Source of the DNA: Bryobacterales bacterium
GTDB lineage: Bacteria; Acidobacteriota; Terriglobia; Bryobacterales; Bryobacteraceae
Direction of reading: 5' to 3'
Assembly: GCA_963738345.1 (NCBI GenBank)
Contig: CAVTWI010000002.1
Coordinates: 3,421,860 to 3,485,859 of the forward strand
DNA length: 64,000 nt
Part shown: one piece after another, positions 20,793-42,432 of the stretch
Layout: each line of letters begins with the position of its first letter
How positions within the stretch are numbered: the stretch's first letter is position 1
Program-made: the position numbers and the translations under genes
The notes under the pieces: generated by a model
The model's input: the letters and a program-made list of their open reading frames with translations, nothing else
What the model was told of the DNA's origin: nothing
The model's database searches: none

Positions 20793-20835
20793 TTCTATCA
20801 ATGCCTGTTGATCAATGCAGATTGATCAATGCATG
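20793..20835. repeat. three tandem ~14-bp repeats with palindromic TTGATCAA core (TCTATCAATGCC / TTGATCAATGCA / TTGATCAATGCA), immediately upstream of the ycaQ-like start
   Basis: Read directly from caattctatcaatgcctgttgatcaatgcagattgatcaatgcatgg; TAGAAT -10-like hexamer sits between the repeats and the GTG start. Confidence 0.6.
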
Positions 20836-21032
20836 GCAGCGGCGATGATCAGGCAGATGCCGATGGCTGCCGCGCCGGCGAAGATCGCCACGGCCACATT
20901 GCGATGCTCCACCAGTTCGCGCCACAGATTCAGCGGGGTCACCTTCAGCAGGATAGCGACCGCAAGGGCAAAGACAGCTATGCCCAGCGACGCGAAGATC
21001 ACGGCATTGACCAGCGGATGCTCGGTCAGCAT
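20826..21032 (-). CDS. DUF350-like small two-TM membrane protein
   Basis: [33 protein letters not shown]...[23 protein letters not shown]; ATG overlaps the hypB stop (ATGCTGA). Confidence 0.45.
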
Positions 21033-21694
21033 GCGGCCGCCGGGACACCCTTGGCGTCGAGCCACTGGCGCCACAGATCCATGCCCGCGCCGGTGGTGCA
21101 CGAGACTTCCAGGATTGCAGCATCCGGCTGGATGCGGTGGATGTATTCGCGCGCCAGTTCCATCCTGAACGGGCACGTAAGGCAGCAGGTCGATTTTACT
21201 GAGCACCACCAGGTCGGCGCGGTTGAAGGTGGCCGGATACTTCAGGGGCTTGTCTTCACCCTCGGTCACGCTTAGGAGCGACGACGCGCGCTTCTTCGCC
21301 AAGATCGTAACTGGTGGGGCAGACCAAGTTGCCGACGTTCTCGATCAGCAGCAGATCGATGTCTTCGGGCCGCCATTCGGAGAGGGCGCTGGTGACCATG
21401 CGGGCGTCCAGATGGCAGGCGCCGCCGGTGGTGATCTGGCGGACGGGGAAGCCGTAGCGCGCGAGGCGCTGGGCATCGTTATCGGTTTGGATATCGCCGG
21501 TGAGCACGGCCACGCGCCGGCCGGGCTCGAAGGACGGCTAGGGTGCGCTCCAGCAGCATGGTTTTGCCGGAACCGGGCGAACTGATCAGGTTCACGCACC
21601 AGGTTCCATGGCGCAGCGAAAACCTCGGCGCAGATCCGGCGGCGAGGCGGTCGTTTTCATTCAGGACTTTGCGTTCGAGGGGCACGCGAGTCAT
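21026..21694 (-). pseudogene. hypB: hypB (hydrogenase nickel-incorporation GTPase) spread over three reading frames, at least three frameshifts
   Basis: Frame a: MTRVPLERKV...NLISSPGSGKTMLLERTLAVLRA (P-loop). Frame b: VAVLTGDIQTDNDAQRLARYGFPVRQITTGGACHLDARMV...[17 protein letters not shown]. Frame c: [36 protein letters not shown]. Frame a again: [38 protein letters not shown]. Confidence 0.7.
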
Positions 21695-22036
21695 GTTTCT
21701 TCGATCTCCATGTAGGCGAATTCCAGTTCCTTGCCGCTGGCGATTTCGGTATCCGGCGGAGCCGCATTGGGGGCACTCGGTGCGATAGTCTTGGACGGCG
21801 AAATCGTGGGCGCAATGGCGGCAGCGGTTGCGCCAGGGGAGGTGCTCGATTTGTAAGGCGAGGGGGGCGAGGTCGGTATCCTGTACCAGAGCGTCGAAGC
21901 AGAAGCGGAGCGATTCGGAATCGACGCCGGAGAGTTCGCCGATTTTCACGCCTACGGCGAGGACGTGGGCGTGGTGGCGTTCGGATTCGGCGCGGACGGC
22001 TTCTAACATCGATCCGGCGATGCTCATTTCGTGCAT
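21691..22036 (-). pseudogene. hypA: hypA (hydrogenase maturation Ni-metallochaperone) with one frameshift after the CPQCGS zinc-ribbon
   Basis: MHEMSIAGSMLEAVRAESERHHAHVLAVGVKIGELSGVDSESLRFCFDALV...CRHC...CPQCGS then the +1 frame gives DTEIASGKELEFAYMEIEET*; stop overlaps the hypB ATG (ATGA). Confidence 0.65.
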
Positions 22037-22408
22037 GGTGAGGCGCTTCTCCGATGATAGCGTGGGGGGAGGCGGGCGCGGCTGGGTGGGCTGGAGGCGT
22101 TGTGTGTTTTGCGCAGGCGGCGGGGGCGCGCCGCAACCACAGAAAGGCCTCCGCCCGTGGGACGGCCGCAAGCTCCGGTGCTCGGTCAGCGCGTTAAGGA
22201 ACTGCGGAGGCTTTCCCGATGTGTTTGCCAACTTCGAACTCTCGTCTGCGGGCATGGTGCAGGATTTTGGAAGAGCCACAGAGGCGACGAATTCTTCGGA
22301 GAGTTGCGAGCGGCTACTTCACAGTTCGGCATTATGAGATACTCATAGGCCTTAGGTTAGGCGCATAAGGTGGCTGCTCGCGCCGATGCGAGAACGGGGG
22401 AATAAGCG

Positions 22409-26724: not shown

Positions 26725-27198
26725 TTGGACAAATACGTGAATCGGCATGGCGACACTGTGAGCCGCGGTCTTCGTTATTGATCCTGCGGTTCGAATTACG
26801 GAAGCCGAACTCGTCCGCGATATTCACGCCGTGCTGGCAAAGGTTGAGGAGGGAGTTGAGGTAATCGTGGAGCGGGAGCATCGCGCCGTGGCTGTTATTA
26901 AGACGCCGACGGGGCCGGGCCGGAAAACCAGCGAGTGCATCGCTATGGCGAGTACCTCAATACGGTTTTCGCGGCGATCCCTAGTGAACCGTTTACAGGG
27001 AAATGGCTCAGCTTGCGGCGAAAGTTGATGCCGCGCGGCTGGAGCCTCGGTAGCACGATGCCGCCCTTCATTTCGGCTATGCGGCCGGCTCCCAGAACCT
27101 GCGACACTTCCAGATGACTCTGACGCGTGCCGAGAACCGGGGCCGCGCCAGCCGTTATGATGATGTACATGCTCAATCACCAACCGGGTGCGGCCGTC

Positions 27199-28151
27199 AT
27201 GAAAGATCCGCTGACGTGGTTGTACCCTCCTATCGAGCCCTACAATACGGGACGCCTGCAGGTGTCGCCGGTTCACGAGATTTACTTTGAGGAAAGCGGC
27301 AACCCGGCGGGCAAGCCGGTGGTTTTCCTGCACGGGGGGCCGGGCGGCGGCTCGGATCCGAAGCAGCGGCGTTTCTTCCACCCTGGCAAGTATCGCATCG
27401 TAAATTTCGATCAGCGCGGCTGCGGCAAGAGCACGCCTTACGCATCGCTCGAAGCCAATACGACTTGGGATCTGGTCGCCGATATCGAGAAGCTACGGGG
27501 GCACCTCGGCATTCAGCGGTGGCAGGTGTTCGGCGGGTCGTGGGGGTCCACACTGGCACTGGCTTACGCGCAGACGCATCCCGAGCGCGCGACCGAACTG
27601 GTCTTACGCGGCATCTTTTTAATACGCAAACAGGAAATCGATTGGTTCTATCAGCGGGGCGCTTCGATTTTATATCCGGACGCGTGGGAGCCTTATCTGG
27701 CGCACATTCCGGAAGGCGAACGCGGCGATTTGCTTTCTGCTTACCACCGGCGGCTGACGAGCGACGATCCGGCGGTGCGACTGGCGGCGGCGAAGATCTG
27801 GAGCGGGTGGAGGGGGCCACGTCGAAATTGTTGCCCGACGCGGACTTTACCAGCCATTACGAGGAGGACGAATTCGCTTTGGCGTTCGCGCGGATTGAGT
27901 CGCACTACTTCGTGAACAAAGCGTTCATGGAGACGGACGACCAGTTGTTGGTGAATGCCGAGCGCATCCGGCATATTCCCGGAGTGATCGTGCAGGGCCG
28001 TTATGATGTGGTGTGTCCGATGGAGAGCGCCTGGGCACTGCACCGGGCGTGGCCGGAGGCTGACCTCATTATCACTCCGGATAGCGGGCACAGTGCGTTC
28101 GAAGCGCCTAATAGCCGCGCGCTGGTGGCGGCGACGGATCGGTTCGCGTAG
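27199..28151 (+). CDS. pip: proline iminopeptidase (S33 alpha/beta hydrolase), split by a 1-nt frameshift near ~27800 in a G-run
   Basis: N-terminus MKDPLTWLYPPIEPYNTGRLQVSPVHEIYFEESGNP...GGSWGSTLALAYAQTHPE (nucleophile GGSWGS). Frame 2 continues EGATSKLLPDADF...HIPGVIVQGRYDVVCPMESAWALHRAWPEADLIITPDSGHSAFE. Junction sequence gggtggagggggcc. Confidence 0.7.
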
Positions 28152-28154
28152 AGA

Positions 28155-28598
28155 TCATTCGACGGGCGTGCCGTAAGGCGTCAGCACTCTCACGCCTTCG
28201 GTATTTTCTTGGCGGGCGATGCGCCATCCGGCGGGCGACTGTTGTAGGAAATACATCTGGGCTTCGTTGCGGTCACTGTAAACATACTCGACGCGTAAGC
28301 GGACCTCCCCTTCGGCAACGGTCTGAGGCTCCTGGATGGCGACGCCCTTCACCGAACCGTTAAAGCGGCGAATATAGTCGGCCAGGGATGCATCGCCTTT
28401 CTCTTTCACGATCTGGCGGAGCGAGCTTTCCATCGGGCCGGTGAAGCATGCCAAGTATGTGCCGACATCACCGTCGCGGGCCGCATCCATCATGGCGTAG
28501 ACGGTATCCTGCGGCGTCTTTGGCGCGCTGGAGCGAAGGATTGCGGGAGGGCGCCAGGCACCGCGTTTGGCGGCAACCAGGGTGAGGGCGCCGGCCAA
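28155..28598 (-). CDS. small hypothetical protein (NTF2-like fold?), last gene of the ATPase/SPFH array; true start probably internal (MMDAARDGD...)
   Basis: ORF overlaps the 3' end of the hflK-like gene if the full ORF is used. Confidence 0.35.
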   Translation of the reverse strand: MAGALTLVAAKRGAWRPPAILRSSAPKTPQDTVYAMMDAARDGDVGTYLACFTGPMESSLRQIVKEKGDASLADYIRRFNGSVKGVAIQEPQTVAEGEVRLRVEYVYSDRNEAQMYFLQQSPAGWRIARQENTEGVRVLTPYGTPVE

Positions 28599-29699
28599 GA
28601 CTCAGTACGGTGGCGATTTGCGCCTTACGTTCGCGGGTCATGGATTCTTCCTCGCATTCTGCGGGTCTTGCCTTGCGTATAATGGTCAAGTCGAAATTGC
28701 CGTTCTTGTCGACGATGAGTTTTTTGATTTTGGGCAGGACCTGTTCCATGGTTTCCAGATAGAGGCGGCGTCCATTGACTGCCGAGGCGCGCGCGTATTC
28801 GCTGGCGACCAGGTCGAAGCGGGCGGCGTCGCCTTTGGCTTCGTCGATCTTGCTTTGCTTGTAGGCTTGGGAGGCTTCGGTCATCTGCTGGGCTTCGCCA
28901 CGCGCACGGGGGACGAGATCGTTTTCGTAGCCGAGGGCTTCGTTGTAAATACGAGCGCCATCGGCGCGGGCGCTGGCCACATCGCGGAATGCGTCAGCGG
29001 CCTCTGGGGGGGGCGTCACGCTCTCGATATTGACGCTGGCTATGCGAACGCCCAGGCGGTAGCGATCGATCACGTTCTGGGCCGCGGCGCGCACTTGCTC
29101 CTGAATCGCGGTCTTGCCGGTGGTGAGGATGGCGTCCACGGGATTTTGGCCGATGCGGCGGGCGAGTTCGGTTTCGACGGCTGCGCCGACGCTGCGGGCT
29201 ACATCCTGTGCACCGAACAGATAGTCGGATGGAGTGCCGACGGAGTACTGCACGACGGCGCGCAGATTAATAATGTTCTGATCGCCGGTGAGGAATTGCG
29301 AGGCCAGCGGCTGGGTGCGGCCGAGAACGCTATCGGGAAGATCGCCGCCTACGACCAGGCGCTGGCGCTGCTGGACTTTCAGTTTAGTGACGCGATCGAT
29401 GGGCCACGGCAGGGCGATGTGGATGCCTGGAAAGACGCGGGGCTCGACCACTTGCCCAAAGCGCGTTACGACGGCTTGTTGGTCGGCCGGCACAATGTAG
29501 ACGCCGCTGACGAGCCACAAGCCCGCGAGAGCCAAGGCGATGCGGCGAAGGGGAGGGCGGCTGCCCGGTTCCCTGGCGGGTGGGTGCGGATGTTCGTGGT
29601 GATGGTGTTCATGGGTATGGGGGTGGTGATGCCCATGCTGTGATCGTGGTGATCGTGATGATCGTGGTGGTGCGGTTCTACCGCGGGAGCGGTACTCAT
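28468..29699 (-). CDS. HflK-like SPFH/band-7 protein with His-rich N-terminus; -1 frame change inside the His-codon repeat
   Basis: ATG overlaps the upstream hflC-like stop (ATGA). Frame A: MSTAPAVEPHHHDHHDHHDHS. Frame B: QHGHHHPHTHEHHHHEHPHPPAREPGSRPPLRRIALALAGLWLVSGVYIVPADQQAVVTRFGQ... through a full band-7 domain (EALGYENDLVPRARGEAQQMTEASQAYK). Frame B has no start codon before 29535. Confidence 0.6.
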
Positions 29700-30558
29700 T
29701 GCGCGCCGCCTTCGCCTTTCATGAGCACTTTCAGCAGCTCGGAATCGGAACTGAGAATTGCAGTGGTCTTGTCGTCGAGGATTTTCTTATACGATTCCAG
29801 CGTGCGGACTAGTTTGTAGAATTTCGGATTCCGGGAATAGGCTTCGCTATAGATGCGGGTGGAAGCGGCATCGCCCTCGCCGCGAGTTTTTTCCGCGTCT
29901 TTGTAGGCGGCGGAGAGGATCTCATCGCGCTGACGGTCGGCATCGGCACGGATGCGCAGCGCCTGCTCTTCGCCCTCGGCACGATACTGGCGAGCGATGC
30001 GCTCGCGTTCGGCACGCATGCGGGCGTACACGCTCTGCTTGTTCTGTTCGGGAAGATTGATGCCGCTTGATGCGCACATCGACGATGTCGATGCCGTACT
30101 GAGACAAGGCCGAACTGCCGGTAGCAGCGGTCAACTGGTCGAGGAAGGCTTCCGACTGGGTACCACCGGCGTTGGCGGCGACGATGGAATCGAGGTCGTG
30201 GGTGCCAAGGACGGCCGACAAGTCCGGACCATACGATGTCGTGTAAACGCATCTCGGCGGAGATCGGGTCGCCCACGGTTTCGACGAAACGCTTGGGATC
30301 GCGAATGCGCCAAGCGACATAGCTTTCGATGACCAGATTCTTCTTGTCGCGGGTGAGGAATTCGCTGGGCCGCGGATCGTAAATGCGCAGGCGGCGGTCA
30401 AAGTAAGTGACGCTTTGAAAGAACCATTTAGCATTCAGGCCGGCGCCGGTAATGGTGCGGACGGGTCTGCCGAATTGGGTGATGAGCGCGAATTCGGTTT
30501 CGCGAACGGAGAACAATGTGAGCCAGACGAACAGAAGGAGAGCAACCGCCACGACCAA
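29696..30558 (-). pseudogene. HflC-like SPFH/band-7 protein in three frames (two 1-nt indels)
   Basis: Frame 1: MVVAVALLLFVWLTLFSVRETEFALITQFGRPV...DPISAEMRL. Frame 2: YTTSYGPDLSAVLGTHDLDSIVAANAGG...GIDIVDVRIKR. Frame 3: INLPEQNKQSVYARMRAERERIARQYRAEGEE...FYKLVRTLESYKKIL...DSELLKVLMKGEGGAQ*. These align to E. coli HflC (recalled). Confidence 0.6.
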
Positions 30559-30599
30559 CAGATATAGTGCGTTTTTTTAAGATGCATGATTTCCGTCTT

Positions 30600-31698
30600 C
30601 TTACTGTCCCAATCCCAAGGTTCCGGGGGGCGCGACCTCCACGCCATCTTCGAGCAGTAGGAGATGGCGGCGTCCAGAGGACGAATCCAGAATTAGTTTT
30701 TTCTTGCCCGGCAGGACCTGGTCCATGGTTTCCAGATAAAGGCGGAAGCGGTGGATGGCGGGCGCGGTATTGAAGGCTGCCTCGGTGAGATCGAAAGCGG
30801 GCGCCGTCGCCATCCGCGCGCTGGGTGCGGCTGATTTTATAGCCTTGCGCGGATTGCAGGCGGGCCTGGGCGTTGCCGCGGGCCAAGCGCCACTTGCTCA
30901 TTGCGATAACCCTCGGCTTCATTGATCGAGGCGGTTCTTTTCTTCGTAGGCGGCGGAGACTTCGCGGAACGCGTCGACCACTTCGAGCGAAGGATGGACA
31001 TCGAGCAACTTGACGCGGATGACTGTTGCGCCCGCGCCATAGCGATCGAGCTTTGTTCTGCAGCGCCGCCATGACGCGGCTTTCGATGGACTGCCGGCCG
31101 GTAGTTAGGACGTCGTCGAGCGGGGCGGCGGAGACGGTGGTTTGCAGAGCCGATTCGGCGGCGGTACGGACGGTAGTTTCAGCGTCGAGTTGCTGGAATA
31201 GGAAATCGTCAGGGCGGTCCATCTGGTAGTGGACGACGGCGTTCACTTCGATCATGTTCTGGTCGCCGGTGAGCATGAGAGCCTCTTCGGGCTTGCGGAG
31301 GAAACGGCCGGAGCGATGCTGCACGTTCCACTCGTAGGCGGCAGGTTCGGCATCCAGACTGGCGCCGTTGGAACGGAAACCGACCTCCACCACGCGCACG
31401 TTACGGCTGCGGACACGGGTGAGGCGTTCGATGGGCCAGGGGAGTTTGTAGTGCAGGCCGGACTGGCGATAGGGAAGGATCTTGCGGCCGAAGCGCTCGA
31501 CCACGCCGGTTTCATTGGGCCCCAGTGAGTAAAAGCCGCTCAAGATCAGCAGGGCAGCGGCAGCGGCCAGGACGGGGCGGGTAAGTTGGCGGCGGTGGGC
31601 GACGGCGCGATCGAACCAGTGCTTAGGATCGAGATCGTGCGACAGGTGGTGGAGTCGATGCGAGAGTTGGTGCAGGCGGGCGGCCGGGATCCAGGCGA
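30600..31698 (-). pseudogene. decayed HflK-like SPFH copy (at least 4 frameshifts) immediately downstream of, and in frame with, the P-type ATPase
   Basis: His-rich linker LHQLSHRLHHLSHD, TM helix, NETGVVERFGRK...DQNMIEVNAVVHYQMDRPDDFLFQ in the ATPase frame. INEAEGYRNEQVAL, ARGNAQARLQSAQGYK and YLETMDQVLPGKKKLILD appear in other frames. Confidence 0.5.
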
Positions 31699-33574
31699 AC
31701 AGGCCGCTACGGCGCTCGACGCGCAGCAGGCGCAGGGAATTCAAGACTACTAATAAAGATGCGATCTGGTGGGTGACGGCCGCGCCGATGGGTCCCAGTT
31801 TGCCGGTGGCGGCAGCGGTGATGGCGACGGCATTCACGATGCCCGCGAAGATGATGATATTTTGCCAAGCCGTGCGGAGGGCGCGGCGGCTCACTTCGAA
31901 AAGCTGGGGCAGCGCTTCCAGGGAGTGACCTAGGAAGACCACGCCTGCGGCTTCAGCGGTGATATCGTTGGCGCCACCGACGGCGATGCCGACATCCGCG
32001 GCGGCTAGTGCGGGAGCGTCGTTCAGTCCGTCGCCCACCATGGCAACGTGGTGACCATGGGCGGTGGCATGGCGGATGCGTTCCAGCTTATCTTCGGGCA
32101 GCAGCCCGGCGGCGACGTCGCGGAGGCCGGCCTCGCGGGCAATGGCTTCGGCCGCGCGCTGGCGATCGCCGGTGAGCATGGTGAGACGCGAAATCTCAAG
32201 GTGCTCGAGTTCATGGACGGCGCGGCGGGCGCCTTCGCGGAGGCGATCGCGAAGTAGGAGGCTGCCGGCCAGCACTCCGTTTTCGGCGATCAGGACCGCG
32301 GTGGCTCCGTAGCGATCGGCTTCTTCGAGTAGCGGTTCGAGGCCGGTGACATGGTGGTCGGCCAGGAATGCCGCGTTTCCGGCGATGATGGTGCGGCCTC
32401 CGGCGCGGGCGGTGGCGCCACGGCCGGGCACGATATTCGACTCGTCAGGGGGGGGGATGGGCAGGGCGCGATGCCGGGCTTCGTCCAGGATGGCGCGCGC
32501 CAGGACGTGCTCGGAACCGTACTCGGCAGTGGCTGCCAGTGACAGGACTTCGGACTCGGTGCGCCCGACGGCAGTGACTTTCACTACTCCGAAGCGGCCT
32601 TCGGTGATGGTGCCGGTCTTATCGAAGAAGACTGTGTCGATTTTGGCAGCCGCTTGTAGGACGGTACCGCCGCGCACCAGAATACCGCGCCGGGCCAGAC
32701 CTCCTATGGCGGCGACCATGGCCGCGGGAGTGGCGAGGATTAGGGCACAGGGGCAGGCGACGATCAAGACAGAGACGGTGCGCAGCCAATCGCGGGTGAA
32801 GTAGAAAGTGAGCCCAGCGACCAGCATCAGAGCGGGTAGGAAGTAGCGGGCAAAACGATCGGCGAGGCGTTCTACGGGGGCGCGCTTTTCGCGAGCGTGC
32901 TCGACGAGTTTAATTACGCGGGCGAGAGTGGTTTCCGATCCGGCGCGAGTTACGGTGATGCGCAGGGGGCCGAGACCGTTGAGCGTTCCAGAGAATACGG
33001 GGTCGCCGGCGCTCTTATCGCGCGGGAGCGGTTCGCCGGTGATGGTGCTTTCGTCGATGCTGGAGGTGCCGTGAAAGATTACGCCATCGGCGGCGACACG
33101 CTCGCCGGGCCGGACCAACACGACGTCCCCGGGCACCAACTGGGCGGCGTCTACTTCAGCCTCGACACCGTCCCGAAGGACGCGCGCGTGGCGCGGCAGT
33201 TGTTCCACGAAGCGTTGAATGGCGGCGTGAGTACGGCCCGCCGCGTAGCCTTCCAGCGCTTCGCCGATCAGCATGATGAACATGGCTTCGGCGGCGGCGA
33301 GAAACTGGCCAGAGGCGAGAGCCGCGATTACCGCCACGCAAATGGCAAGATCAGCCGAAATCTTGCGTTGTAGCAAACCGGAGATAGCGGTGAAGAAGGT
33401 ACGGTATCCGGCGATTAGAGTGAGTATGGCGGCGGTGTCTATGCCTGCGATGGTGGTGAAAGCGCCGGTTACATTGAGTAATAGAAGGATGCCGATGAAG
33501 GCGGCGAAGCCGAACTGTTGGATCAGTTGCTTGCGTACATCGTATACCGGTTCCTTAGGTAAATGAACGTGCAT
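31699..33574 (-). CDS. heavy-metal P1B-type ATPase (CPC motif) lacking an N-terminal HMA domain; no stop codon before the HflK-like segment
   Basis: TM6 IVACPCALILATPAAM, phosphorylation site DKTGTITEG, hinge GDGLNDAPALAAADVGIAVG; starts 3 nt after the stop of the upstream propeller-PHP paralog. Confidence 0.8.
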
Positions 33575-33577: not shown

Positions 33578-36466
33578 TTATCTCTTTTGGATCCATACGG
33601 GCGAACTCCAGGCGAGGTTGCCATCCTCCTGCTCGACGCGGACGTAATAGCGGTTCTCGCCCGGCACGGGGTGCGGGTCCATGTAAGTGAACTGCGAGTG
33701 GCGTTCGCCGGTGGGGGTGACCTCGTAGGCGTACGACTCGTTGTGAATGACGGCGATGCGCCGGATGGGCCCGGTACCGACGGCGTTGACGCGAAGCACA
33801 TACTGGCTGGTGGCGGGGATTTCGTCGCCTTGCAGATACTCACGACCGCCAGCCTCGACGCGGAAATCTAGAATGATGTTGTCAGTGGCGCCGTAGGAAT
33901 GGCGCTTGCGCATGGCGTCGACAAGGTCCTGACGGCCGGTGCCGGTAGCCAGGATGCAGGAGTAGGAAATGTGAGTAGAGCAATGGTCAGATGCGGCTTC
34001 GAAGCCGATGCGATAGCCCTTGGCCAGTGCATTCCAAATGAAACCCGCGGGGCGGTAGCCACTACGCTGGGTGTATAGCTTTTCGGCGGTGGGAGCTTTC
34101 GGTCCACCTTCATGCTCGTAGGCGTCGCGATGACCCTGGTACACTTCGACCAACGGTTCGAGCGTGTTGTCATGATCCTGCCAGTCGGTGCCTTGATCCG
34201 TGGCGGTGGTGTGACGAAAAGCCAGCCCGTCATATTGGCGCAAGTACGGAAGCACGCGGGTAGCGGAGCGGATGGTGCCCGGTTTGTCGGGTCCCGTTTG
34301 CTCGGCAGGATCGATAGGCAAGATGGGAATATCGCGCTTGGTGAAAACGATATTGCGGTGTCCGTTGGGGTAAACGACGCTGCGTTCGTAGGCGTAAAGA
34401 GTAGTCAAGCGGTGAGTGACTTGAAAGACATCGCAGGACTTTTGTGTCTTCCACCAGTTGTAAGATGTGCCGCCACCCTGATGATCGGTGACGGTGGAAA
34501 AGTCCAGACTGGCGGCGTCGAGAGCATAGCGGTAGAAATCCCATAGCGAGCCATCACCTACGCCGTCGGTGGAGAGGGATGTGTGACGATGTAAGTCGCC
34601 GCGCAAGACGCGATATTCAGTGCCCGCTACTTGCATGCGGTAATCGCGGATGGAGCGCACGTCGGCGGGCTCGGCGGGATGCGTAGGCGCGGATAGTTCG
34701 GGGCGTTCCACGAAGGGCTTAAAGCGGATTTCCCCAGAGGGGGGGGCCTCGGGGACAGTGGCCGCGTACACGGTTTGGCGGCCCGGCTTGGCGGTCTGAA
34801 AGTCGCGATTGTCGCCGGACCAAGCGGCCCAGAGTTGGCCATCGGGCGTGGCGGCGAGGGCTACGCGAGCGTCGTTTGCGCCGGTAGATTGGGGCAGGGT
34901 CTGGCTACGATGCCATCCTGTGCCGTCAAGGGTGAAGACGGCGTCTTCCCATACGCCATTGGCGCCCCAAACCTCGATCACACTGTTTGACTTAGTCAGT
35001 TGCAAAGCGGCGAGTGCGACTTTGCCGTCCGGAGTTACGGTGATCTGCGGGTTCTGCAAGAAGCGCGGGAGTGACAGGGGAAAGGCATCGCCAAGGGGCG
35101 CTTCGGGTTCTTCGATGCGGTCACCGGTGATCCGGAGTACGCGTACTTTGCGGGATTGATATAGCGGGTTCCCAGCGGTCTTGACTAGAAAGCCGTAGTC
35201 CTTGCCCCAGTTGGCTTCCGCTTCATCGAAGGCCATCCACAGGTGCCCAGCTTTGTCACAGGCGAGTGCAGCATGGGCCTCCATGCGGGGCGAGTGAGTG
35301 ACCGATCGGATTGGCGAAGCTTGGCCTTCGGAGAACGAGCGCAAGAACACGTCGTAATTGCCGCGATCATAGCTATCCCATGCGATCCAGACCGTACCGT
35401 TGGCGTCGGCGGCGATGGCGGGTTCCCAATCGTTGGCAGGGGACTCGCTGACCCGCCGTTCGGGCTGCCATTGTCCGCCGTGAAATGTCTTGGTGTAGAT
35501 GTCGGACTGGCCATCGCGAAAAGCTTGCCAAGCGAGCCAGAGATCGCCCTGGCTATCGGTGGCTACGCGGGGGTTGATGTCGGAACCAGGGGCGCTGGTC
35601 ACGCGCTCGACATTGCTCCATGCGCCGGCGGAGTTGCGGCGTTCGTAGAGATCCCAGTTGCCGTCAACCTGCGCCGCCCAAATTACGTGCAGGACACCTG
35701 CGCCATCGTATCCGGCCGTGGGCCGCAGCACGTCACGGGTCTCGGACTGTTCCACGATTTCTGGGGGGTTCCATTGATGGCCATTCCACTCGCGAGTGAC
35801 TATGCGGTCGCGCTCGCCCATGAATTCCTGCCATGCGACGGCAACGCGCCCGGAGGGTCCGGCGGCGACGGCGGGGAAGTCCGCTTCGTTCGCGGTGCTG
35901 GCGCTAAAGGGATAAGCGGCGGATTCGACTTCGATGTTTCCGTTGTCGAAAGTCAGTTGCTTGCGGGCGGCCAGATCGCCTAGCGAGAAGGTGAAATTCC
36001 CTGCCCCCAATACGTGAAAGCGGGCCGCCATACTGCCTGATACGACCGCATATATGCCGTTAGGAAACACAGCGCGGGGCCCTGGAAGAACGGGGCTTAG
36101 ATCGACTTGTTGAACATTGGGCGTCCAGGCGCGGGTGGAGAAAGAGAATTCAGCGGCGCCACTGTCGGAGGCCGTAATCTGGTCTTCATTCTGAAAGTGG
36201 TAGCCCGCCAGCGACAGCACTTTGGCGTCTTCGGACACCGGTTCGATCCACCCGCGCCAGATACGGGTGGCCGAGTCAGTGACGCCGTAGCGAATCAGGA
36301 TTTGTTGAGCCGAGGCGTTCCACGGGTGGCCGGTTTCGGCTGGCGATTGTGCCCGCAGGCGCGTACCGAAGCGGGCGGCGAAAAAGCCTAGAGCCGCTAC
36401 GGCCAGTATGACGATCGCTTTGCGCACTATTTTCCCGTGTAAGTGATCCACATGGGGGAAGCCCAC
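33578..36466 (-). CDS. secreted beta-propeller (PD40/BNR-like repeats) + C-terminal PHP-type (CehA/McbA-like) metallo-phosphoesterase, paralog 1 (divergent)
   Basis: Repeats ...GRVAVAWQEF, GVLHVIWAAQVDGNWDLY, GDLWLAWQAFRDGQSDIY, GTVWIAWDSYDRGNYDVF. PHP motifs LRGDLHRHTSLSTDGVGDG, TDHQGG, NGHRN, FRHTTATDQGTDW, AASDHCSTH. True start uncertain (overlaps the paralog 2 stop by 40 nt). Confidence 0.6.
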   Translation of the reverse strand: MGFPHVDHLHGKIVRKAIVILAVAALGFFAARFGTRLRAQSPAETGHPWNASAQQILIRYGVTDSATRIWRGWIEPVSEDAKVLSLAGYHFQNEDQITASDSGAAEFSFSTRAWTPNVQQVDLSPVLPGPRAVFPNGIYAVVSGSMAARFHVLGAGNFTFSLGDLAARKQLTFDNGNIEVESAAYPFSASTANEADFPAVAAGPSGRVAVAWQEFMGERDRIVTREWNGHQWNPPEIVEQSETRDVLRPTAGYDGAGVLHVIWAAQVDGNWDLYERRNSAGAWSNVERVTSAPGSDINPRVATDSQGDLWLAWQAFRDGQSDIYTKTFHGGQWQPERRVSESPANDWEPAIAADANGTVWIAWDSYDRGNYDVFLRSFSEGQASPIRSVTHSPRMEAHAALACDKAGHLWMAFDEAEANWGKDYGFLVKTAGNPLYQSRKVRVLRITGDRIEEPEAPLGDAFPLSLPRFLQNPQITVTPDGKVALAALQLTKSNSVIEVWGANGVWEDAVFTLDGTGWHRSQTLPQSTGANDARVALAATPDGQLWAAWSGDNRDFQTAKPGRQTVYAATVPEAPPSGEIRFKPFVERPELSAPTHPAEPADVRSIRDYRMQVAGTEYRVLRGDLHRHTSLSTDGVGDGSLWDFYRYALDAASLDFSTVTDHQGGGTSYNWWKTQKSCDVFQVTHRLTTLYAYERSVVYPNGHRNIVFTKRDIPILPIDPAEQTGPDKPGTIRSATRVLPYLRQYDGLAFRHTTATDQGTDWQDHDNTLEPLVEVYQGHRDAYEHEGGPKAPTAEKLYTQRSGYRPAGFIWNALAKGYRIGFEAASDHCSTHISYSCILATGTGRQDLVDAMRKRHSYGATDNIILDFRVEAGGREYLQGDEIPATSQYVLRVNAVGTGPIRRIAVIHNESYAYEVTPTGERHSQFTYMDPHPVPGENRYYVRVEQEDGNLAWSSPVWIQKR

Positions 36467-39420
36467 ACTAACTCGCCGTTATCTTGCTCGCCCCGCACAT
36501 AGTAGTAGCTGGTTTTGCCCTTGGATGGCGCGTTGTCACGCCAGGAGAATTCGACGTTTCCAGCGTGCGGTTCGGCGGAGTAGACATATTCGTTGTCTTT
36601 CACGATCACGACCTTAGAGATCGGGTTCTGGGCCGAGAGCCTCACATGTAGGCTAGGAGGTTCGGCGGTGGAAAAGACGTCGCCCATCATGTACGGACCG
36701 CAGCGCACGTCGGCCACGATCTGCTCGGTCGATGCGTAGACGTGGCGCTTGCGGAGAGCGTCCACAATGGCCTCGCGGGTGTCACCCGACACCAGCACGT
36801 TGGCGTAACTCTGGTGGGTGGAGATGTGATCCGAACTGGCCTGGAAGCCGAGTTTATAACCCTTCTCCAGGGCCAGATTGACGAAACCCTTGGGACGCCA
36901 TCCGCCGATGGAATCGGTGGCGGAATTGGAGCGCGGCGCATCCGGCATCTCGTAGTTCTGGCGCATGCCCTGATAGATTTCGACGACTGGTTCGGCATCG
37001 GGATCGTTGTCGCGCCAGTCGGTACCCATGTCGGTGGCGCTGGTATGAGAGGCGGTCACGCCGCCGAACTTCTTCAGATATTCGTAGAACAGCAGCGTAT
37101 CGGGCGCATGGCCTGTGGAGTTTTCATCGACCTTAGGAAGGCGCGGCAAGGGCCGCACGCCGCGCTGTGCGAAGACCACGTTGCGGTGCCCTTCGGGATA
37201 CGAAACGCTGCGCTCGTAGTTGAAAAGGGGAGCGAACTTGCCGGGGGTGTAAAAGACGTCGGTCAATTTCTGGGTGGTCCACCAAGTGTATTCGCGTCCA
37301 CCGCCGTTGTCATGATCGCAGCAGCCCACCCAATCGAGCGACGCGGCATCGAGGATGTAGCGCCATTGGTCGATCAAGGTGCCATCCAGGCCGCCATCCA
37401 TGGAAATCTCGCTGTGGCGATGGAACTCGCCGCGCACGATCTGGAGCGGCTGTCCCTTGGAATCGATGCGATAGCTGCGCACAGCGTTAGTTCCGGCGCG
37501 TTCCGATTCTGATTCGACAACGAGGGCCGGGGCCGGGGGCGGCCCGATCGACTTAGCGGGCACCTGGCCCGCGGCGGCAGGCAACTTGATCACGCTGGCG
37601 TATAGATCGTTGTTGTATGGGTCAGGGATTGCGGAACCGAGCAATTGTCCAAGGCTCCAGCCCTTCTTCAACATGTATTGCACTTCGCGGCGCGAGTCTG
37701 AAGAGTTGATGACTATCAGTTCGCCGCCTGCTTTCGAGATCAATGCGGGCCGGTTATCGAGCACATTGTCACTGCGGAAGATATAAGTAGGACCGGTCCA
37801 GGCTTTGCCGTCGTAACTAATTACAAACTCGGACCAAGAGGTGCCGAGGGGCGTCCATACCTGGGGGTGCATGCTGCGATAGGCCAACCAGAGCCTACCG
37901 GAAGCGTCCACCGTGAGCCGGGGCAAAGTATTGCGCGGATTGTTTTCGGGCCAGGGATGCGCGTTCGATGGACGGCGCGTGAACAACTCAGAATCGGATC
38001 GCTCCCAACCCTTGACATTGACTTGACGACCACCGCCATCCTCGCGGATATCGGACAAACCCTGCAGTGCGACGTCGGGATTGACGGCGGGTTGCAGCAG
38101 GCGGCCCGACCGATCGAGCCCTACCATGCGGATGCCGCGCGACAGATAGACGGGAACGCCCGAACTGCGGTGCGCTCCGAAATCCTTGCCCCAGTTGTCG
38201 GATCCGGTTTCGTAGGCGATCCACAAGCGGCCCTCGCCATCGTATGCGATGGAAGGATACGCTTCATAGAGGGGCGTGGCGGCCACCGGAATCTCAGCGC
38301 CCCACTGGCCCGGTGCGGTCGCGGTACGCGCATAGATGTCATAGCTACCGTTGCGGTAGGAATCCCACGCGACCGATACACGGCCGGAGGAATCCGCCGC
38401 GATGGCCGGATTCCATTCATTGCCTTTCGAGTTCGAGACGGCCTCGGGCGCAGAGAAGCCGTTGCCCTGTTGGGTTGCGGCAAAGATGACGCCGCGGCCG
38501 TCGCGCCAACCCTGCCAGGCGACCCAAACGCGACCGCCGGAATCAGTCGTAGCCGCGGGAAAAACATCTGAGCCGGGTGAGTTGGTAATGCGCACGGTGG
38601 CGCCCGGCGTACCATTGTCGATCACGCGAGCCCATAGGTCGAAGTTGTTGGCTTGGTTGGCAGACCAGAAGACCCACGGCTTGCCGGAGCCATCCACAGC
38701 GATAGCCGGCCGGTATAGGTCGCCGCCGGGGGGGGTAATGGCAATCGGCTCACTCCAACGATTCCCCGAGAAGCGCTTGACCAGGATCTGGTCACCCTCG
38801 GCTTTGGCTACCAATGGCGACAAGTCCGTGGGCTTCTCTTTATAGGGAGCGCGCAATTGATCATGATCGGGACGATGTTTGAACTCAACGTAAGCAACCC
38901 AAATGTCACCATTGGCCGTTGCCGCCGCCGGATAATCCTGCTCGTCGGGCGAGTCGGTCAGGCGCGACGAAGGGGGGATCCGGTCAACGGCGACGTTGCC
39001 GTCGAGAGCGTAGTGGAACTTACCGTAAGGCAGGTCGGCCAGTTTGAAGGTGAACGGTCCAAGCGGAGTTGTGACCTGGATCTTGCTGTCCTCGCCTTCA
39101 CCGCTGAGCCATAAGATGACACCGTTGGGCCCCACGGGCGGGGTTTGCCGCTGTACCAAGTGGAGGAATGACAGCACAGGCGCGGTGGAGAGCTTCCACG
39201 ATCCGTCACTGGCAATTTCGTCGTCTTTACCAAACCGCCAAGGGTCAACCTTGGTGATACGGCCGCCGTCAATAGTGGCGGACCCATCCCATTTCTTGCC
39301 GGCCCGATCCATCAGGCCGAGTAAGACACGGACACCCATGTCCGCTCGAATGGGAAGCGCCGCAGCGAACAGCGTGGCCGCAAGCGCGGTGGAATTGAAT
39401 AGTATACGTGAAGTCGACAT
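36427..39420 (-). CDS. secreted beta-propeller + PHP-type metallo-phosphoesterase, paralog 2
   Basis: Signal peptide; GDIWVAYVEF, GKPWVFWSANQANNFDLW, GRVWVAWQGWRDGRGVIF, GRVSVAWDSYRNGSYDIY, GRLWIAYETGSDNWGKDFG; IVRGEFHRHSEISMDGGLDG...CCDHDNGG...EGHRNV...ASHTSATDMGTDW...ASSDHISTH. Confidence 0.65.
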   Translation of the reverse strand: MSTSRILFNSTALAATLFAAALPIRADMGVRVLLGLMDRAGKKWDGSATIDGGRITKVDPWRFGKDDEIASDGSWKLSTAPVLSFLHLVQRQTPPVGPNGVILWLSGEGEDSKIQVTTPLGPFTFKLADLPYGKFHYALDGNVAVDRIPPSSRLTDSPDEQDYPAAATANGDIWVAYVEFKHRPDHDQLRAPYKEKPTDLSPLVAKAEGDQILVKRFSGNRWSEPIAITPPGGDLYRPAIAVDGSGKPWVFWSANQANNFDLWARVIDNGTPGATVRITNSPGSDVFPAATTDSGGRVWVAWQGWRDGRGVIFAATQQGNGFSAPEAVSNSKGNEWNPAIAADSSGRVSVAWDSYRNGSYDIYARTATAPGQWGAEIPVAATPLYEAYPSIAYDGEGRLWIAYETGSDNWGKDFGAHRSSGVPVYLSRGIRMVGLDRSGRLLQPAVNPDVALQGLSDIREDGGGRQVNVKGWERSDSELFTRRPSNAHPWPENNPRNTLPRLTVDASGRLWLAYRSMHPQVWTPLGTSWSEFVISYDGKAWTGPTYIFRSDNVLDNRPALISKAGGELIVINSSDSRREVQYMLKKGWSLGQLLGSAIPDPYNNDLYASVIKLPAAAGQVPAKSIGPPPAPALVVESESERAGTNAVRSYRIDSKGQPLQIVRGEFHRHSEISMDGGLDGTLIDQWRYILDAASLDWVGCCDHDNGGGREYTWWTTQKLTDVFYTPGKFAPLFNYERSVSYPEGHRNVVFAQRGVRPLPRLPKVDENSTGHAPDTLLFYEYLKKFGGVTASHTSATDMGTDWRDNDPDAEPVVEIYQGMRQNYEMPDAPRSNSATDSIGGWRPKGFVNLALEKGYKLGFQASSDHISTHQSYANVLVSGDTREAIVDALRKRHVYASTEQIVADVRCGPYMMGDVFSTAEPPSLHVRLSAQNPISKVVIVKDNEYVYSAEPHAGNVEFSWRDNAPSKGKTSYYYVRGEQDNGELVWASPMWITYTGK

Positions 39421-39429
39421 GCCGGTTCC

Positions 39430-42400
39430 TTATTTGCCCGAGTAAGTAATCCACATTGGCGATACCCATACGATCTCGCCGTTATCCTGCTCGCCACGCA
39501 CGTAGTAGTAACTGGTCTTTCCCTTAGACGGTGAATTGTCCCGCCAGGAAAACTCCACTTTGTCGGTACCGGGTTGGGTGGAGTACACATACTCGTTGTC
39601 TTTCACCACTACGACTTTTGCGAACTTAGCAGTGCCTTCCAGTTTGACGTGGAGGTTGGGGGCCTCCGCGGTGGTAAACACATCGCCCATCAGGTTGGGC
39701 CCGCTCCGCACGTCGGCAAGGATGTTGTCGGTTGACCCATAGACATGACGCTTCTCAAAAGCATCCAGCACGGATTCGCGCGTCAGATCCTTAGCCAGCA
39801 GATTGCAGTAACTCATGTGGGTGGAAATGTGGTCCGAACTGGCCTGAAAACCCAATTTGTAGCCCTTGGCGAGAGCCAGGTTCACGAAGCCTTTGGGACG
39901 CCAATTGCCAATGGAATCCTTCTCGGAGTTGGCGCGCGGGCCGTCGGGTATTTCGTAGTTCTGGCGATCGCCCTGGTAGATTTCGACCACGGGTTCGGCC
40001 ACCGGATCGTTGTCGCGCCAGTCCGTACCCATCGCGGTAGCGCTGGTATGCGAGGCGCCGATGCCATGGAAATATTTCAAATACGCGTAGAGGTTTAACG
40101 TGTCGGGCGCGTGACCGGTGAACTGTTCGGTGGTGATGGGCATGCGCGGCAGGGTGCGAACGCCGCGTTGCGCGAAGATTACGTTGCGATGCCCTTCGGG
40201 ATAATTGACGCTCCGTTCATAGCTGAACATCGGGACGAACTTACCCGGAGAATAGAAGATATCGGTCAGTTTCTGACTAATCCACCAGGAGTACTCGCGT
40301 CCTGCGCCGTTGTCATGATCGCAGCATCCCACCCAATCGAGGGCGCCGGCGTCGAGGACGTAGCGGTATTGATCGAGGATCGTGCCGTCGCCACCGCCGT
40401 CCATAGAGATTTCACTGTGACGGTGGAATTCACCGCGGACAATTTTCAATTCCGACTGACTGCCTTCTTTATAACCGCGAAGCCTGCTGACGAGGCCGAG
40501 GTCGGTTTTATCTGCCACTTCCGGCCCAGCTTGTTCGATGGGTCTGGCCTCTTTGAGCGCAGCCGGCTGCGCGGCGGGGCCGAGATCGATTTCGTTGGCG
40601 TATAGGTCGTTATTATACGGATCGCTTTTGGAGGTCGCAGTGATGCCCAGTGGAGAACTGACATTCTCACCAAGATAGAATTGACGGCGATTGTCGGAGG
40701 ATCCGAGCACTAAGAGTTGGCCCGGCTTGGTGGAAACCAATGCTGGACGATTGTCTAATATGTTATCGGTGTGATTCAGATAGATCGGCTGGCTCCAGGA
40801 CTTGCCGTCGAAGGAGACCAGGTGTTCGGTCCAGACGGTGCCGAGGATGCTCCACCAGATGGGATGGGCGCTGCGAAAGGCCAGCCAGATGCGGCCGGAG
40901 GCATCCACCGTAAGGCGGGGCAGGGTGTTGCGGGCATTCTGCATGTTACGGGCGGCACGGTCGGCCTCGCGCGTCTGCGCGTTCTTCGGATCGGGATCGA
41001 GTTTCTCGAAGTCCTTCTGCACGCCGGCTTTGTCCAGATGAATATTGGCGAACCCGGGGAGGACTGCGCTCAGGTCACCGGCAGTTTCGACGGCACGCCC
41101 ATCGGATTCGAAGCCCCGCAGGCGGATGGCGCGGCCCTGATAGACGGCCACACCGCTGGTGGCATAGGCGCCGAAGTCTTTGCCCCAGCCCTTACCCCCC
41201 TCTTCGTAGGCCACCCACAAGCGGCCCTCGCCATCATACGCGACCGACGGATACGCTTCGTAGCGCGCGGAGGCGGCGACGGGGGTTTCGGCACCCCAGT
41301 TTCCCGCTGCCGCGGTGCGGAAGTAGACGTCGTAATTCTGATTCCGATAAGAATCCCACGCCACCGTCACGCGGCCTGTTTTGTCGGCGGCGATAGCGGG
41401 ATTCCACTCGTTACCTTCGGAGTTGGACACTGCCGTAGAGGCGCTGAACTTATTGCCGCTCTGGGAGGCGGCGAAGATCGACGCACGCCCGCTGCGCCAA
41501 CCTTGCCATGCTACCCAGACGTTGCCAGCGGAGTCAGTGGTGGCGACGGGGTCGATATCCGACCCGGGATCGCTCGAGATCTGGACCTTGGCGCCAGGAA
41601 CGCCGTTCGAGATCACACGTCCAAAAATTTCGAAGTTCGCTTGCGATCCGGCGGGGCGGACGTTCTGTGCCCAGAAGACCCAGGGCCTTCCCTGCCCGTC
41701 AATGGCGATGGCCGAGCGATACAAATCTCCGCCGGCGGGAGTAACGGCAATGGGAGCGCCCCACGCGCCACCAGTATATTGGCGGGCGAAGATCTGATCG
41801 CCACCGGTCGGACTTTTCCAACGCGAGAAATCTTTGGGAGCGGTGTCGAGTGCGGCGCGCAGGGCATTGTGGTCGGGGTTGTGATGAAACTGGACGTAAG
41901 CCATCCATACTTCGCCGTTCTTGCCTACGGCGGCTGAGGGATAATCCTCTTCCTCGGAGGTTTTAGTGAGCTGAGTACTTGCGGGGACGCGGTCGACGAC
42001 TACGCGGCCGTCCAACTTCGAAACGGTCTTGGCGTAGGCCACTTCGTCCAAGGCGATGTTGAAGTCACCCTGCGCGGTGGTCAGTTTCAGTTCCGCGCCG
42101 GATCCCGATCCGGATAGGTTTACGATGATCCCGTTGGCGACAATGCTGCTGACGCCTTGCGCGGAGATCTGGGTGCCGCCACCAAACAGGCGGATGGGAT
42201 GCGTATTCAAGTGCCAAGTGTTTCCCACCAGCGCATCAGTGCCCTCGAAGCGCCACGGCTCGATGGAAGCAATCTGCGCACCCTGCGCGGAGATGGTCCC
42301 ATCCCAGCGGATAGGGCCTTTATCGTTCACTCCGAAGAGAATGCGTACGCTGATTTGGGCTTGGGCGGCGGTGGCAGCAATCAGGACTGCTCCGAGGGTG

Positions 42401-42432
42401 GCGCAGGCTTTACCGATGATTGTTTCACGCAT
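39430..42432 (-). CDS. secreted beta-propeller + PHP-type metallo-phosphoesterase, paralog 3
   Basis: Near-identical architecture and motifs to paralog 2 (GEVWMAYVQFHHNPDHNALRA..., IVRGEFHRHSEISMDGGGDG, CCDHDNGAGREYSWW); 9-nt gap to paralog 2. Confidence 0.65.
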   Translation of the reverse strand: MRETIIGKACATLGAVLIAATAAQAQISVRILFGVNDKGPIRWDGTISAQGAQIASIEPWRFEGTDALVGNTWHLNTHPIRLFGGGTQISAQGVSSIVANGIIVNLSGSGSGAELKLTTAQGDFNIALDEVAYAKTVSKLDGRVVVDRVPASTQLTKTSEEEDYPSAAVGKNGEVWMAYVQFHHNPDHNALRAALDTAPKDFSRWKSPTGGDQIFARQYTGGAWGAPIAVTPAGGDLYRSAIAIDGQGRPWVFWAQNVRPAGSQANFEIFGRVISNGVPGAKVQISSDPGSDIDPVATTDSAGNVWVAWQGWRSGRASIFAASQSGNKFSASTAVSNSEGNEWNPAIAADKTGRVTVAWDSYRNQNYDVYFRTAAAGNWGAETPVAASARYEAYPSVAYDGEGRLWVAYEEGGKGWGKDFGAYATSGVAVYQGRAIRLRGFESDGRAVETAGDLSAVLPGFANIHLDKAGVQKDFEKLDPDPKNAQTREADRAARNMQNARNTLPRLTVDASGRIWLAFRSAHPIWWSILGTVWTEHLVSFDGKSWSQPIYLNHTDNILDNRPALVSTKPGQLLVLGSSDNRRQFYLGENVSSPLGITATSKSDPYNNDLYANEIDLGPAAQPAALKEARPIEQAGPEVADKTDLGLVSRLRGYKEGSQSELKIVRGEFHRHSEISMDGGGDGTILDQYRYVLDAGALDWVGCCDHDNGAGREYSWWISQKLTDIFYSPGKFVPMFSYERSVNYPEGHRNVIFAQRGVRTLPRMPITTEQFTGHAPDTLNLYAYLKYFHGIGASHTSATAMGTDWRDNDPVAEPVVEIYQGDRQNYEIPDGPRANSEKDSIGNWRPKGFVNLALAKGYKLGFQASSDHISTHMSYCNLLAKDLTRESVLDAFEKRHVYGSTDNILADVRSGPNLMGDVFTTAEAPNLHVKLEGTAKFAKVVVVKDNEYVYSTQPGTDKVEFSWRDNSPSKGKTSYYYVRGEQDNGEIVWVSPMWITYSGK

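Follow-up and report, generated by a model that had tools for sequence, protein, structure and literature searches.

The window analysed here is a stretch of 64,000 nt from a Bryobacterales bacterium (GCA_963738345.1, CAVTWI010000002.1, positions 3,421,860-3,485,859), and all coordinates given below refer to it. Its minus strand carries a four-gene operon in which a P1B-type metal ATPase reads into HflK, an SPFH protein (HflK1), and is followed by genes for an HflC-like protein, a second HflK (HflK2) and an NTF2-like protein. A first-pass annotation had described the locus as a CPC-type ATPase running straight into a His-rich HflK-like protein, with HflC and a second His-rich HflK downstream and with stop and start codons overlapping as ATGA; all these elements were found on the minus strand, as described. 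The genes and their parts are listed below; corrected sizes are those obtained once the frame-breaking indels discussed in the last section are accounted for.

30601-33574, minus strand: P1B ATPase::HflK1 fusion gene, ~989 amino acids (aa) after removal of 4 extra bases, with the stop codon TAA at 30603-30601
31724-33574, minus strand: P1B-type ATPase part, with 4+2+2 transmembrane (TM) helices and a short N-terminus, 556 bits against TIGR01525
31580-31723, minus strand: linker of ~48 aa, predicted to be cytoplasmic, from ATPase TM6 to the HflK1 TM helix, with the His-rich segment LHQLSHRLHHLSHD at 31634-31675
31520-31579, minus strand: HflK1 TM helix, the ninth of the fusion, a hydropathy peak at residues 664-685
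30601-31519, minus strand: HflK1 SPFH domains, coiled coil and C-terminal region, 213 bits against TIGR01933
29696-30587, minus strand: HflC-like gene, ~295 aa corrected, 223 bits against TIGR01932
28638-29699, minus strand: HflK2, 353 aa corrected, 224 bits against TIGR01933, with a His-rich N-tail of ~41 aa (29575-29699)
28155-28641, minus strand: NTF2-like exported or membrane-anchored protein of 161 aa, fourth gene of the operon, for which an intact identical protein (P0241) exists

In the uncorrected sequence, the open reading frame (ORF) of the fusion spans 30428-33574 and encodes 1048 aa, matching E1-E2_ATPase (PF00122), Hydrolase (PF00702) and Band_7 in Pfam. The translation of this ORF contains the ATPase motifs TITGEPLP, IVACPCALI (with CPC in TM4), FFDKTGTITEG and GDGLNDAP, the last within MVGDGLNDAPALAAA. 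The passage from the last ATPase helix (..LNSLRLL; THQIASLLVVLNSLRLL) into RVERRSGLFAWIPAARLHQLSHRLHHLSHDLDPKHWFDRAVAHRRQLTRP is free of stop codons and continues into a hydrophobic helix and the SPFH domain. In P1B pumps the C-terminus is cytoplasmic, while HflK has its N-terminus inside and its body in the periplasm; the linker is therefore predicted to be cytoplasmic, and the ninth helix to exit to the periplasm.

The assignment of the scaffold genes relies on curated models. HflK1 and HflK2 both score above the cut-off of TIGR01933 (159 bits), and HflC above that of TIGR01932 (134 bits). HflK1 also aligns to E. coli HflK (7VHP) with E=1.8e-35. HflK1 and HflK2 are ancient paralogues, not the outcome of a recent duplication, since they are only ~38 % identical. 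The stop codon of HflC overlaps the start codon of HflK2 as ATGA at 29699-29696, and the pair formed by HflK2 and the NTF2-like gene overlaps in the same way once the indels are corrected. The strings MSTAPAVEPHHHDHHDHHDH and HGHHHPHTHEHHHHEHPHPP of the HflK2 N-tail are both present, split over two frames in the window. The NTF2-like protein begins with a hydrophobic helix, and its AlphaFold model has a pLDDT of 84.7; a fold search with it returned generic NTF2-like matches only (TM-scores 0.3-0.5), none of them connected to any metallochaperone, and no conserved Cys or His cluster was found in its sequence.

Conservation of the fusion and exchange of the exporter

The conservation of the fusion was evaluated in a genome survey, in which each species was represented by one genome. 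A relative is encoded at 332 places, the best 80 of which were analysed; almost all of these 80 loci belong to Bryobacterales, Bryobacteraceae, Solibacteraceae or Terriglobia metagenome-assembled genomes (MAGs). All of them align across the junction between ATPase and HflK1 in a single segment, and 65, out of 79 related species genomes, contain one stop-free ORF of ~990-1010 aa including DKTGT, CPC and the HflK motif, while in the others the fusion ORF is interrupted by contig ends. Most of the 65 fused genomes are short-read MAGs. The in-frame junction at ~31700, which had been regarded as in need of confirmation, thus proves genuine, being a single open frame in the related loci. Synteny in related genomes was searched as a check able to refute the earlier description, and both the fusion and the gene order turned out to be widely kept. 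The order ATPase::HflK1 - HflC - HflK2 - NTF2-like is essentially invariant in loci of the Bryobacterales type: by counting only loci with enough flanking sequence, HflC was found in 74/74, HflK2 in 67/67 and the NTF2-like gene in 57/64. The pump N-termini are short in these related loci (MHVHLPKEP.., MDEERxERIRYY.., MHQHKLE..) and include no HMA domain.

Protein searches gave a similar picture. A query of 296 aa spanning the ATPase/HflK1 boundary detected many proteins, including some from independent metagenomes, which run from the C-terminal helices of the ATPase via the linker into HflK. In Candidatus Sulfopaludibacter SbA3, the fusion gene is split solely by a scaffold gap of Ns. When a profile covering the junction plus HflK was compared with 1.84 billion representative proteins, 2359 matches were obtained at E<=1e-30. 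Among the best 150 clusters (50 % identity) of these matches, 84 combine ATPase and HflK, 49 of them at full length (987-1301 aa); 46 consist of HflK alone, mostly as fragments, and 20 join a different exporter to HflK. Three proteins, P0053, P0117 and P0103, were considered as possible natural unfused HflKs and rejected: the ATPase on their contigs is itself broken into 2-3 pieces, so that they reflect frame breaks and not clean gene boundaries. Taken together, the comparisons indicate that the fusion and the module are almost certainly real.

The 20 clusters with a different exporter contain a Cation_efflux domain (PF01545) of the cation diffusion facilitator (CDF) family, fused to the same HflK clade in proteins of 548-618 aa. 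TM2 of the CDF parts contains ADAxHSxSD and TM5 contains ADGxHSxxD, which together make up the HxxxD/HxxxD site typical of Zn-type CDFs. With the Zn-type CDFs of the ZitB/CzcD/YiiP class they share PF01545 and the TM2/TM5 HxxxD pairs, but the usual cytoplasmic CDF C-terminal domain has apparently given way to a linker followed by a TM helix and a HflK in the periplasm; Band_7 begins near residue 265. Such fusions are found in relatives of the module, not in the window.

A scan of metagenomes collected 29 loci of the CDF::HflK type, together with unfused HflK-HflC pairs and distant ATPase::HflK loci. Where the contig reaches far enough, CDF::HflK is followed by HflC in 23/23 loci and by HflK2 in 18/18, these being orthologues of the HflC (46-60 % identity) and HflK2 (36-54 %) of the window; the NTF2-like gene was found in 0/16 CDF-type loci. 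Since the CDF::HflK and ATPase::HflK fusions share the same HflC-HflK2 trio, exporter::HflK1-HflC-HflK2 is an ancient arrangement in which the metal exporter can be swapped. A second HflK lies beside the unfused HflK-HflC pairs in 1/11 loci; judging from these gene neighbourhoods, the extra, pump-less HflK goes along with the fused pump. That an SPFH scaffold is physically joined to a metal exporter, as proposed from the window, is thus real and conserved, and it is independently backed by the CDF::HflK fusions.

Some CDF-type and distant loci depart from the common arrangement. The contigs with CDF::HflK (L093-L123, L128, L133, L141) come from hosts of widely different GC content (0.31 to 0.67). 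In L097 (6001-11120), the genes directly after CDF::HflK and HflC encode a metal-dependent repressor of the DtxR family, which includes a FeoA domain, and then FeoB; this suggests a Fe/Mn-linked variant without HflK2. In L094/L095, an 830-aa BNR_4-like propeller protein (10210-12702) and CorA (12971-13797) lie downstream of the CDF-type module; the propeller recalls the propeller part of the DUF3604-like proteins found near the ATPase-type modules, described in the next section. Nine of the distant loci (L140, L142, L145, L146, L153, L157, L160, L168, L170; GC 0.51-0.54) contain ATPase::HflK with no HflC or HflK2 detectable within the ~5 kb flank, and may represent a homo-oligomeric variant.

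Metal site, and proposed assembly and function

The pump scores well above the curated cut-off (346 bits) of TIGR01525, the general P1B model, and also passes both the Cd-type and the Cu-type subfamily models. Its best relatives of solved structure are CopA and ZntA, and sCoaT is also a relative at the level of the fold. The first TM helix comes after only ~20 residues, and no HMA match, indicative of an N-terminal HMA/CxxC domain (frequent in P1B pumps, though not required), was obtained in the Pfam search. For a finer classification, the metal-site residues were compared with those of the known P1B subgroups. In comparison to LpCopA (3RFU), Val-Asn takes the place of Tyr-Asn in TM5 and His-Gln-Ile-Ala-Ser that of Met-x-x-Ser-Ser in TM6, so that the P1B-1 (Cu+) signature is missing. 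In comparison to SsZntA (4UMV), Val is found at TM5 Lys693 and His at TM6 Asp714, and the P1B-2 (Zn2+/Cd2+/Pb2+) signature, Lys in TM5 and Asp-x-Gly in TM6, is missing as well. The TM6 His of the window aligns with both D714 of ZntA and M717 of CopA; the fused family keeps it without exception, in the form H-Q or H-E. Throughout this family, TM4 contains CPC (rarely CSC) and TM6 reads H-(Q/E)-x-x-S...N-(S/A)-(L/M)-R-L. With respect to P1B-4 (Co2+/Zn2+), CPC replaces SPC in TM4, and the TM6 motif H(Q/E)xxS is similar to HEGxT. The hallmark quoted for the P1B-6-like zinc exporter CtpC, located between TM5 and TM6, is N-X18-H-N-X-(S/T) (PMC13460109); when compared by it, the window reads N-X20-H-Q-I-A-S and its relatives H-Q-x-S-S, which bears some resemblance to the H-N-X-(S/T) part.

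The fused ATPases therefore share the core P-type and P1B motifs, including CPC, with the subgroups of CopA (P1B-1), ZntA (P1B-2), CoaT/CzcP (P1B-4) and CtpC (P1B-6-like), but differ from them by lacking the Tyr-Asn/Met-x-x-Ser-Ser of CopA, the Lys/Asp of ZntA and an N-terminal HMA domain, by having CPC instead of SPC, and by the added C-terminal SPFH part. They constitute a pump subgroup so far unplaced, marked by CPC and by the His-Gln/His-Glu of TM6. The TM6 His motif, the His-rich segments and the Zn-type CDF partners would together favour a divalent ion, for instance Zn2+ or else Co, Ni or Cd, over Cu+, with a Zn2+-like ion as the best guess.

The module was compared with two known systems: E. 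coli HflK/HflC is the closest structural family, and the PacL-Ctp effluxosome is the closest functional analogue. With the former (7VHP, 7WI3) it shares the N-in topology with a single TM helix, the periplasmic SPFH domains and coiled coil and the adjacency of hflK and hflC. It differs by having an entire metal pump in place of the cytoplasmic N-tail of HflK, a second HflK paralogue, no linked ftsH and, in the Bryobacterales type, the NTF2-like fourth gene. As for the latter, 'effluxosomes' of PacL1-3 with CtpC, CtpG and CtpV have been published for M. tuberculosis, where PacL, a small DUF1490 scaffold with one TM helix and a cytoplasmic Glu/Ala-repeat region, stabilises and clusters P1B pumps; PacL is proposed to work 'like bacterial flotillins', and the PacL/CtpC foci are flotillin-independent (PMC9374683, PMC13043812, PMC13460109). 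The shared traits are a membrane scaffold in one operon with a P1B ATPase, an optional cytoplasmic His-rich motif (DLHDHDH in PacL1, HHHDHHDHHDH... here), dispensable or absent in paralogues, and, in CtpC, the combination of CPC with a TM6 His motif. PacL is however not an SPFH protein, whereas here a true HflK/HflC set, predicted to be periplasmic, is covalently fused to the pump. No match to DUF1490 was obtained in the Pfam search of the module proteins, and the scaffold genes give only Band_7. The module is not a member of the PacL system but would be a functional analogue of it.

Fusions of an exporter, either a P-type ATPase, P1B or CDF, to HflK were not found described in the openly searchable full-text literature. 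The remark of the first-pass annotation that it knew of no description of an association of SPFH proteins with a metal exporter is borne out within that literature, with the qualification that the PacL-Ctp system has been published as a functional analogue.

The explanation that we consider probable is that the operon encodes an exporter for a divalent metal which is held in a ring or cage of the HflK/HflC type. A P1B ATPase with no metal-binding domain of its own would export a transition metal, and HflK1, HflC and HflK2 would form the ring or cage at the inner membrane, on its periplasmic side. The pumps would sit within the cage wall, being joined to HflK1 through the ~48-residue linker and the extra TM helix. 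The E. coli HflK/HflC cage is composed of 12+12 subunits; given this geometry and the size of a P-type ATPase, HflK2 would occupy those HflK positions which are too tight for a bulky pump. The whole assembly would act as an efflux platform for a divalent metal, and in the lineage of the window the His-rich cytoplasmic linker and HflK2 tail may bind or deliver metal locally. The genes for HflC, HflK2 and the NTF2-like protein would be translationally coupled to the fusion gene. The chances that the module does form a cage-like efflux platform are put at about even. A broader proposal, offered tentatively as somewhat short of even chances, is that a widespread and undescribed class of SPFH assemblies is dedicated to transition-metal export: an exporter, P1B ATPase or CDF, would be held covalently in the cage wall, alternating with pump-less HflK, and would release the metal into a private periplasmic space made by the cage, for controlled efflux or for the metallation of exported enzymes, such as the neighbouring DUF3604-like proteins.

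Several observations weigh against the reading as an efflux platform. The ATPase matches neither the classical P1B-1 nor the classical P1B-2 signature. Cage assembly, subunit arrangement, metal identity and the role of the His-rich tails are all deduced from gene sequences. At 9/25 of the distant ATPase::HflK loci no downstream HflC is detectable, so that a hetero-oligomer would not be universal. His-rich tails on exporter-coupled scaffolds, emphasized in the first-pass annotation, are present in the window but not general: the HflK2 N-tail is His-rich in 10/73 species (the clade of the window and two others) and absent in ~86 %, and is therefore not essential to the module. The length of the linker is conserved, its richness in His mainly confined to the clade of the window; His-rich cytoplasmic segments also occur at the ATPase N-terminus in other lineages. 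These tails are a lineage-specific addition and not a defining feature of the module. Finally, a neighbour-joining tree built from the SPFH parts has a star-like shape with little resolution, although the HflK2 proteins of both module types cluster together in it and the unfused HflKs form a group of their own. Its use as a measure of the frequency of exporter swaps was dropped for the same lack of resolution.

A different role is suggested by the genes upstream of the pump:

33578-36466, minus strand: exported 962-aa protein with propeller-like repeats and DUF3604, ending 3 nt before the ATPase start
36427-42432, minus strand: two more DUF3604-like paralogues, of 997 and 1000 aa, oriented like the first

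Here, the SPFH-enclosed space would be a periplasmic metallation compartment, to which the pump supplies a cofactor metal for loading exported apo-enzymes, DUF3604-like proteins being the candidates, possibly with the help of the NTF2-like protein and with no detoxification involved. The first of the three DUF3604-like paralogues is joined to the ATPase gene by the sequence TAA ctt ATG. In the survey, 33/79 loci have a DUF3604-like gene at a distance of up to 6 kb, and in 17/56 it is the immediate upstream neighbour on the same strand; such a gene is also found upstream of distant ATPase-type modules in 8/21 loci. The DUF3604-like proteins have an N-terminal hydrophobic signal or anchor and HxH...DH...H motifs, which look PHP-like. 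Metallation of secreted proteins by P1B ATPases is an established idea, as for the mycobacterial CtpC. On the other hand, a DUF3604-like neighbour is lacking at the majority of the loci, and none was noted beside the CDF-type modules. DUF3604 is an uncharacterised family, for which the literature searched yielded one paper, with no bearing on the present question, and a sequence search of solved structures (PDB) with the DUF3604-like protein gave no match. The NTF2-like protein, as said above, lacks a conserved Cys or His cluster. On balance, a compartment devoted to metallation is considered unlikely.

The DUF3604-like genes are part of a long run of co-directional genes upstream of the pump (33578-48490, minus strand), which also includes a TonB-dependent-like outer-membrane barrel (1081 aa), a Tat-signal sulfatase and a fatty-acid hydroxylase; two of the three DUF3604-like paralogues overlap by 40 nt. 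A similar gene set is present in the nanopore contig L001. In several species of Bryobacterales (L028, L037, L052, L059, L071 and L081, at about 3100-4300, minus strand), the DUF3604-like gene is replaced by ribBA (DHBP synthase / GTP cyclohydrolase II), located divergently upstream of the pump.

HflK and HflC could also act in their canonical role as modulators of FtsH, with the pump as a client, in which case the fusion would link turnover or quality control of the pump to FtsH, rather than organise efflux. HflK1, HflK2 and HflC all exceed the equivalog cut-offs of models named 'FtsH protease activity modulator', and the E. coli HflK to which HflK1 aligns is that of the FtsH-HflK/C structures; HflK/C cages enclosing FtsH are established (PMC12048511). 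At every locus examined, however, ftsH is absent from the module and its surroundings (an unlinked interaction would still be compatible with this), and the unfused HflK-HflC pairs form a separate group without the second HflK. In addition, the occurrence of the same SPFH trio on two unrelated metal exporters points to metal export rather than to general proteolysis, and the FtsH-based explanation is held to be improbable.

If the efflux platform is accepted, it bears on SPFH proteins at large. The role of SPFH cages (HflK/C, prohibitins, stomatins, flotillins) for the proteins that they enclose is an open question, and a fusion names a defined client. Two unrelated pump families welded to a cage subunit would be a natural 'Rosetta-stone' for the stoichiometry, geometry and function of cage and client. 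Scaffold-organised metal efflux has so far been shown only for the mycobacterial PacL-Ctp system; the idea would be extended to true SPFH proteins and to the abundant soil Acidobacteriota.

Frame breaks in the operon

Multiple frameshifts had been reported in the first HflK copy and in HflC, and are real features of the window sequence. They were mapped by frameshift-aware alignment to homologues, including P0001, and by DNA alignments to relatives. HflK1 contains insertions of one base at about 31054, 30928, 30886 and 30796; HflC contains an extra TA (+2) at about 30566 and insertions of one base at 30221 and 30061. HflK2, previously taken as intact, is broken too (-1 at 29639, +1 at 28670), as is the NTF2-like gene (+1 at 28603). 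Beyond the operon, the proline iminopeptidase gene pip (27127-28151, plus strand) is split by a C missing from a C-run at about 27810 (-1). In total, ~11 frame-breaking indels fall within 3.4 kb.

The earlier description had left it undecided whether the duplication was decaying or the sequence erroneous. Of the two, error is supported and decay is not: the frame breaks are very probably assembly errors, in that they are specific to the window, spare the selective constraint on the genes, are patchy, extend to unrelated genes and are absent from a near-identical contig. When compared with 4-6 relatives, the breaks lie in well-aligned coding sequence, occur in the window only and, the +2 apart, are single-base insertions in the main. 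The ratio of nonsynonymous to synonymous substitution rates (dN/dS), calculated with the closest species (L003) as reference, amounts to 0.04-0.09 whether a segment is frameshifted or intact (HflK1 0.05, HflC 0.04), and removal of the extra bases leaves zero internal stops. A codon-usage scan of reading frames located frame switches clustered at 27.7-31.05, 20.8-22.05 and ~1.7-2.3 kb, with none at 31.05-48.5 kb; the cluster at 20.8-22.3 kb falls on hypA/hypB, where hypB is broken by several switches.

Independent sequences of the same or a close strain are available for part of the region. P0128, a fragment of the small protein of the window and 100 % identical to it, lies on a single contig of 7,301,412 bp, which suggests that the source is a long-read assembly. 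P0241, from the same 90 % cluster and derived from an independent assembly of run ERR11523676, is the exact corrected 161-aa sequence. The contig L086 (2.6 kb) matches window 27408-30044 with 98.8 % identity, and the four indels that separate the two are exactly the frame breaks at 29639, 28670, 28603 and 27810; L086 encodes intact HflK2 (353 aa), NTF2-like protein and pip.

Some findings count against reading the breaks as errors. L086 comes from a close strain and not from the same genome, and the frameshifts of HflK1 and of upstream HflC are outside its span, so that the case for error is indirect there. Moreover, a sister lineage (L087-L092, ~80 % DNA identity) has reproducible frame breaks in the operon, in several independent JGI metagenomes: an insertion of one base in the TM5-TM6 loop of the ATPase, another at CTGCA[A]GAAG, within 8 nt of the position of the break at 31054 in the window, and a deletion of one base before the HflK1 stop, which creates a 457-aa HflK1-C::HflC protein, found on 20 contigs. 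Because these breaks are reproducible and one of them is near the 31054 site, a real disruption of the operon may occur in nature; a functional split or a systematic error are other possible readings of the breaks in the sister lineage. The 57 differences between L087 and L092 are too sparse to judge selection on the frame-broken operon. In this lineage, an insertion sequence element is located upstream of the operon in L087 (operon at 3500-8911), while no ATPase could be called in L091 and L092.

These breaks, present in at least six independent metagenome contigs, together with the density of indels in the window, are what speaks for a decaying duplicated operon, whose frameshifts would be real and whose HflK1, HflC and HflK2 would be pseudogenes in this genome. 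Such decay is nevertheless highly improbable: 4/4 testable indels are absent from the 98.8 % identical contig, dN/dS is unchanged, no stop codons remain after correction, the indels, mostly single-base insertions, are all unique to the window, pip and hypA/hypB are affected in a like patchy fashion, the source is one 7.3-Mb contig, and HflK1 and HflK2, at ~38 % identity, are ancient paralogues. Clustered frameshifts in long-read MAGs can look like pseudogenisation, and caution is needed in their interpretation. That the fusion itself is an artefact, due to a sequencing error which erased a stop between ATPase and HflK1, gains something from the indel errors occurring nearby, but the comparative data refute it, since 65 other genomes, mostly short-read MAGs, keep the junction in frame, as do dozens of 50 %-identity clusters, and seemingly separate HflK calls come from contigs with a fragmented ATPase.

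Some minor features of the window may be added. Patches with frame switches on the same strand are found at 1683-2308, 13409-13735 and 20830-22052, and several insertions sit near GATC; coverage, strain mixture or methylation are possible causes of the clustering of errors. The genes at 20800-22300 (minus strand) are hypA and hypB, which encode the metallochaperone and GTPase of nickel insertion, and after them the gene of a DUF350-like membrane protein; the hypA/hypB metallochaperone pair is ~6 kb from the metal-pump operon. The GC skew, (G-C)/(G+C), is positive in each 2-kb bin of the window, ranging from 0.01 to 0.25, and is strongest in the first ~36 kb.

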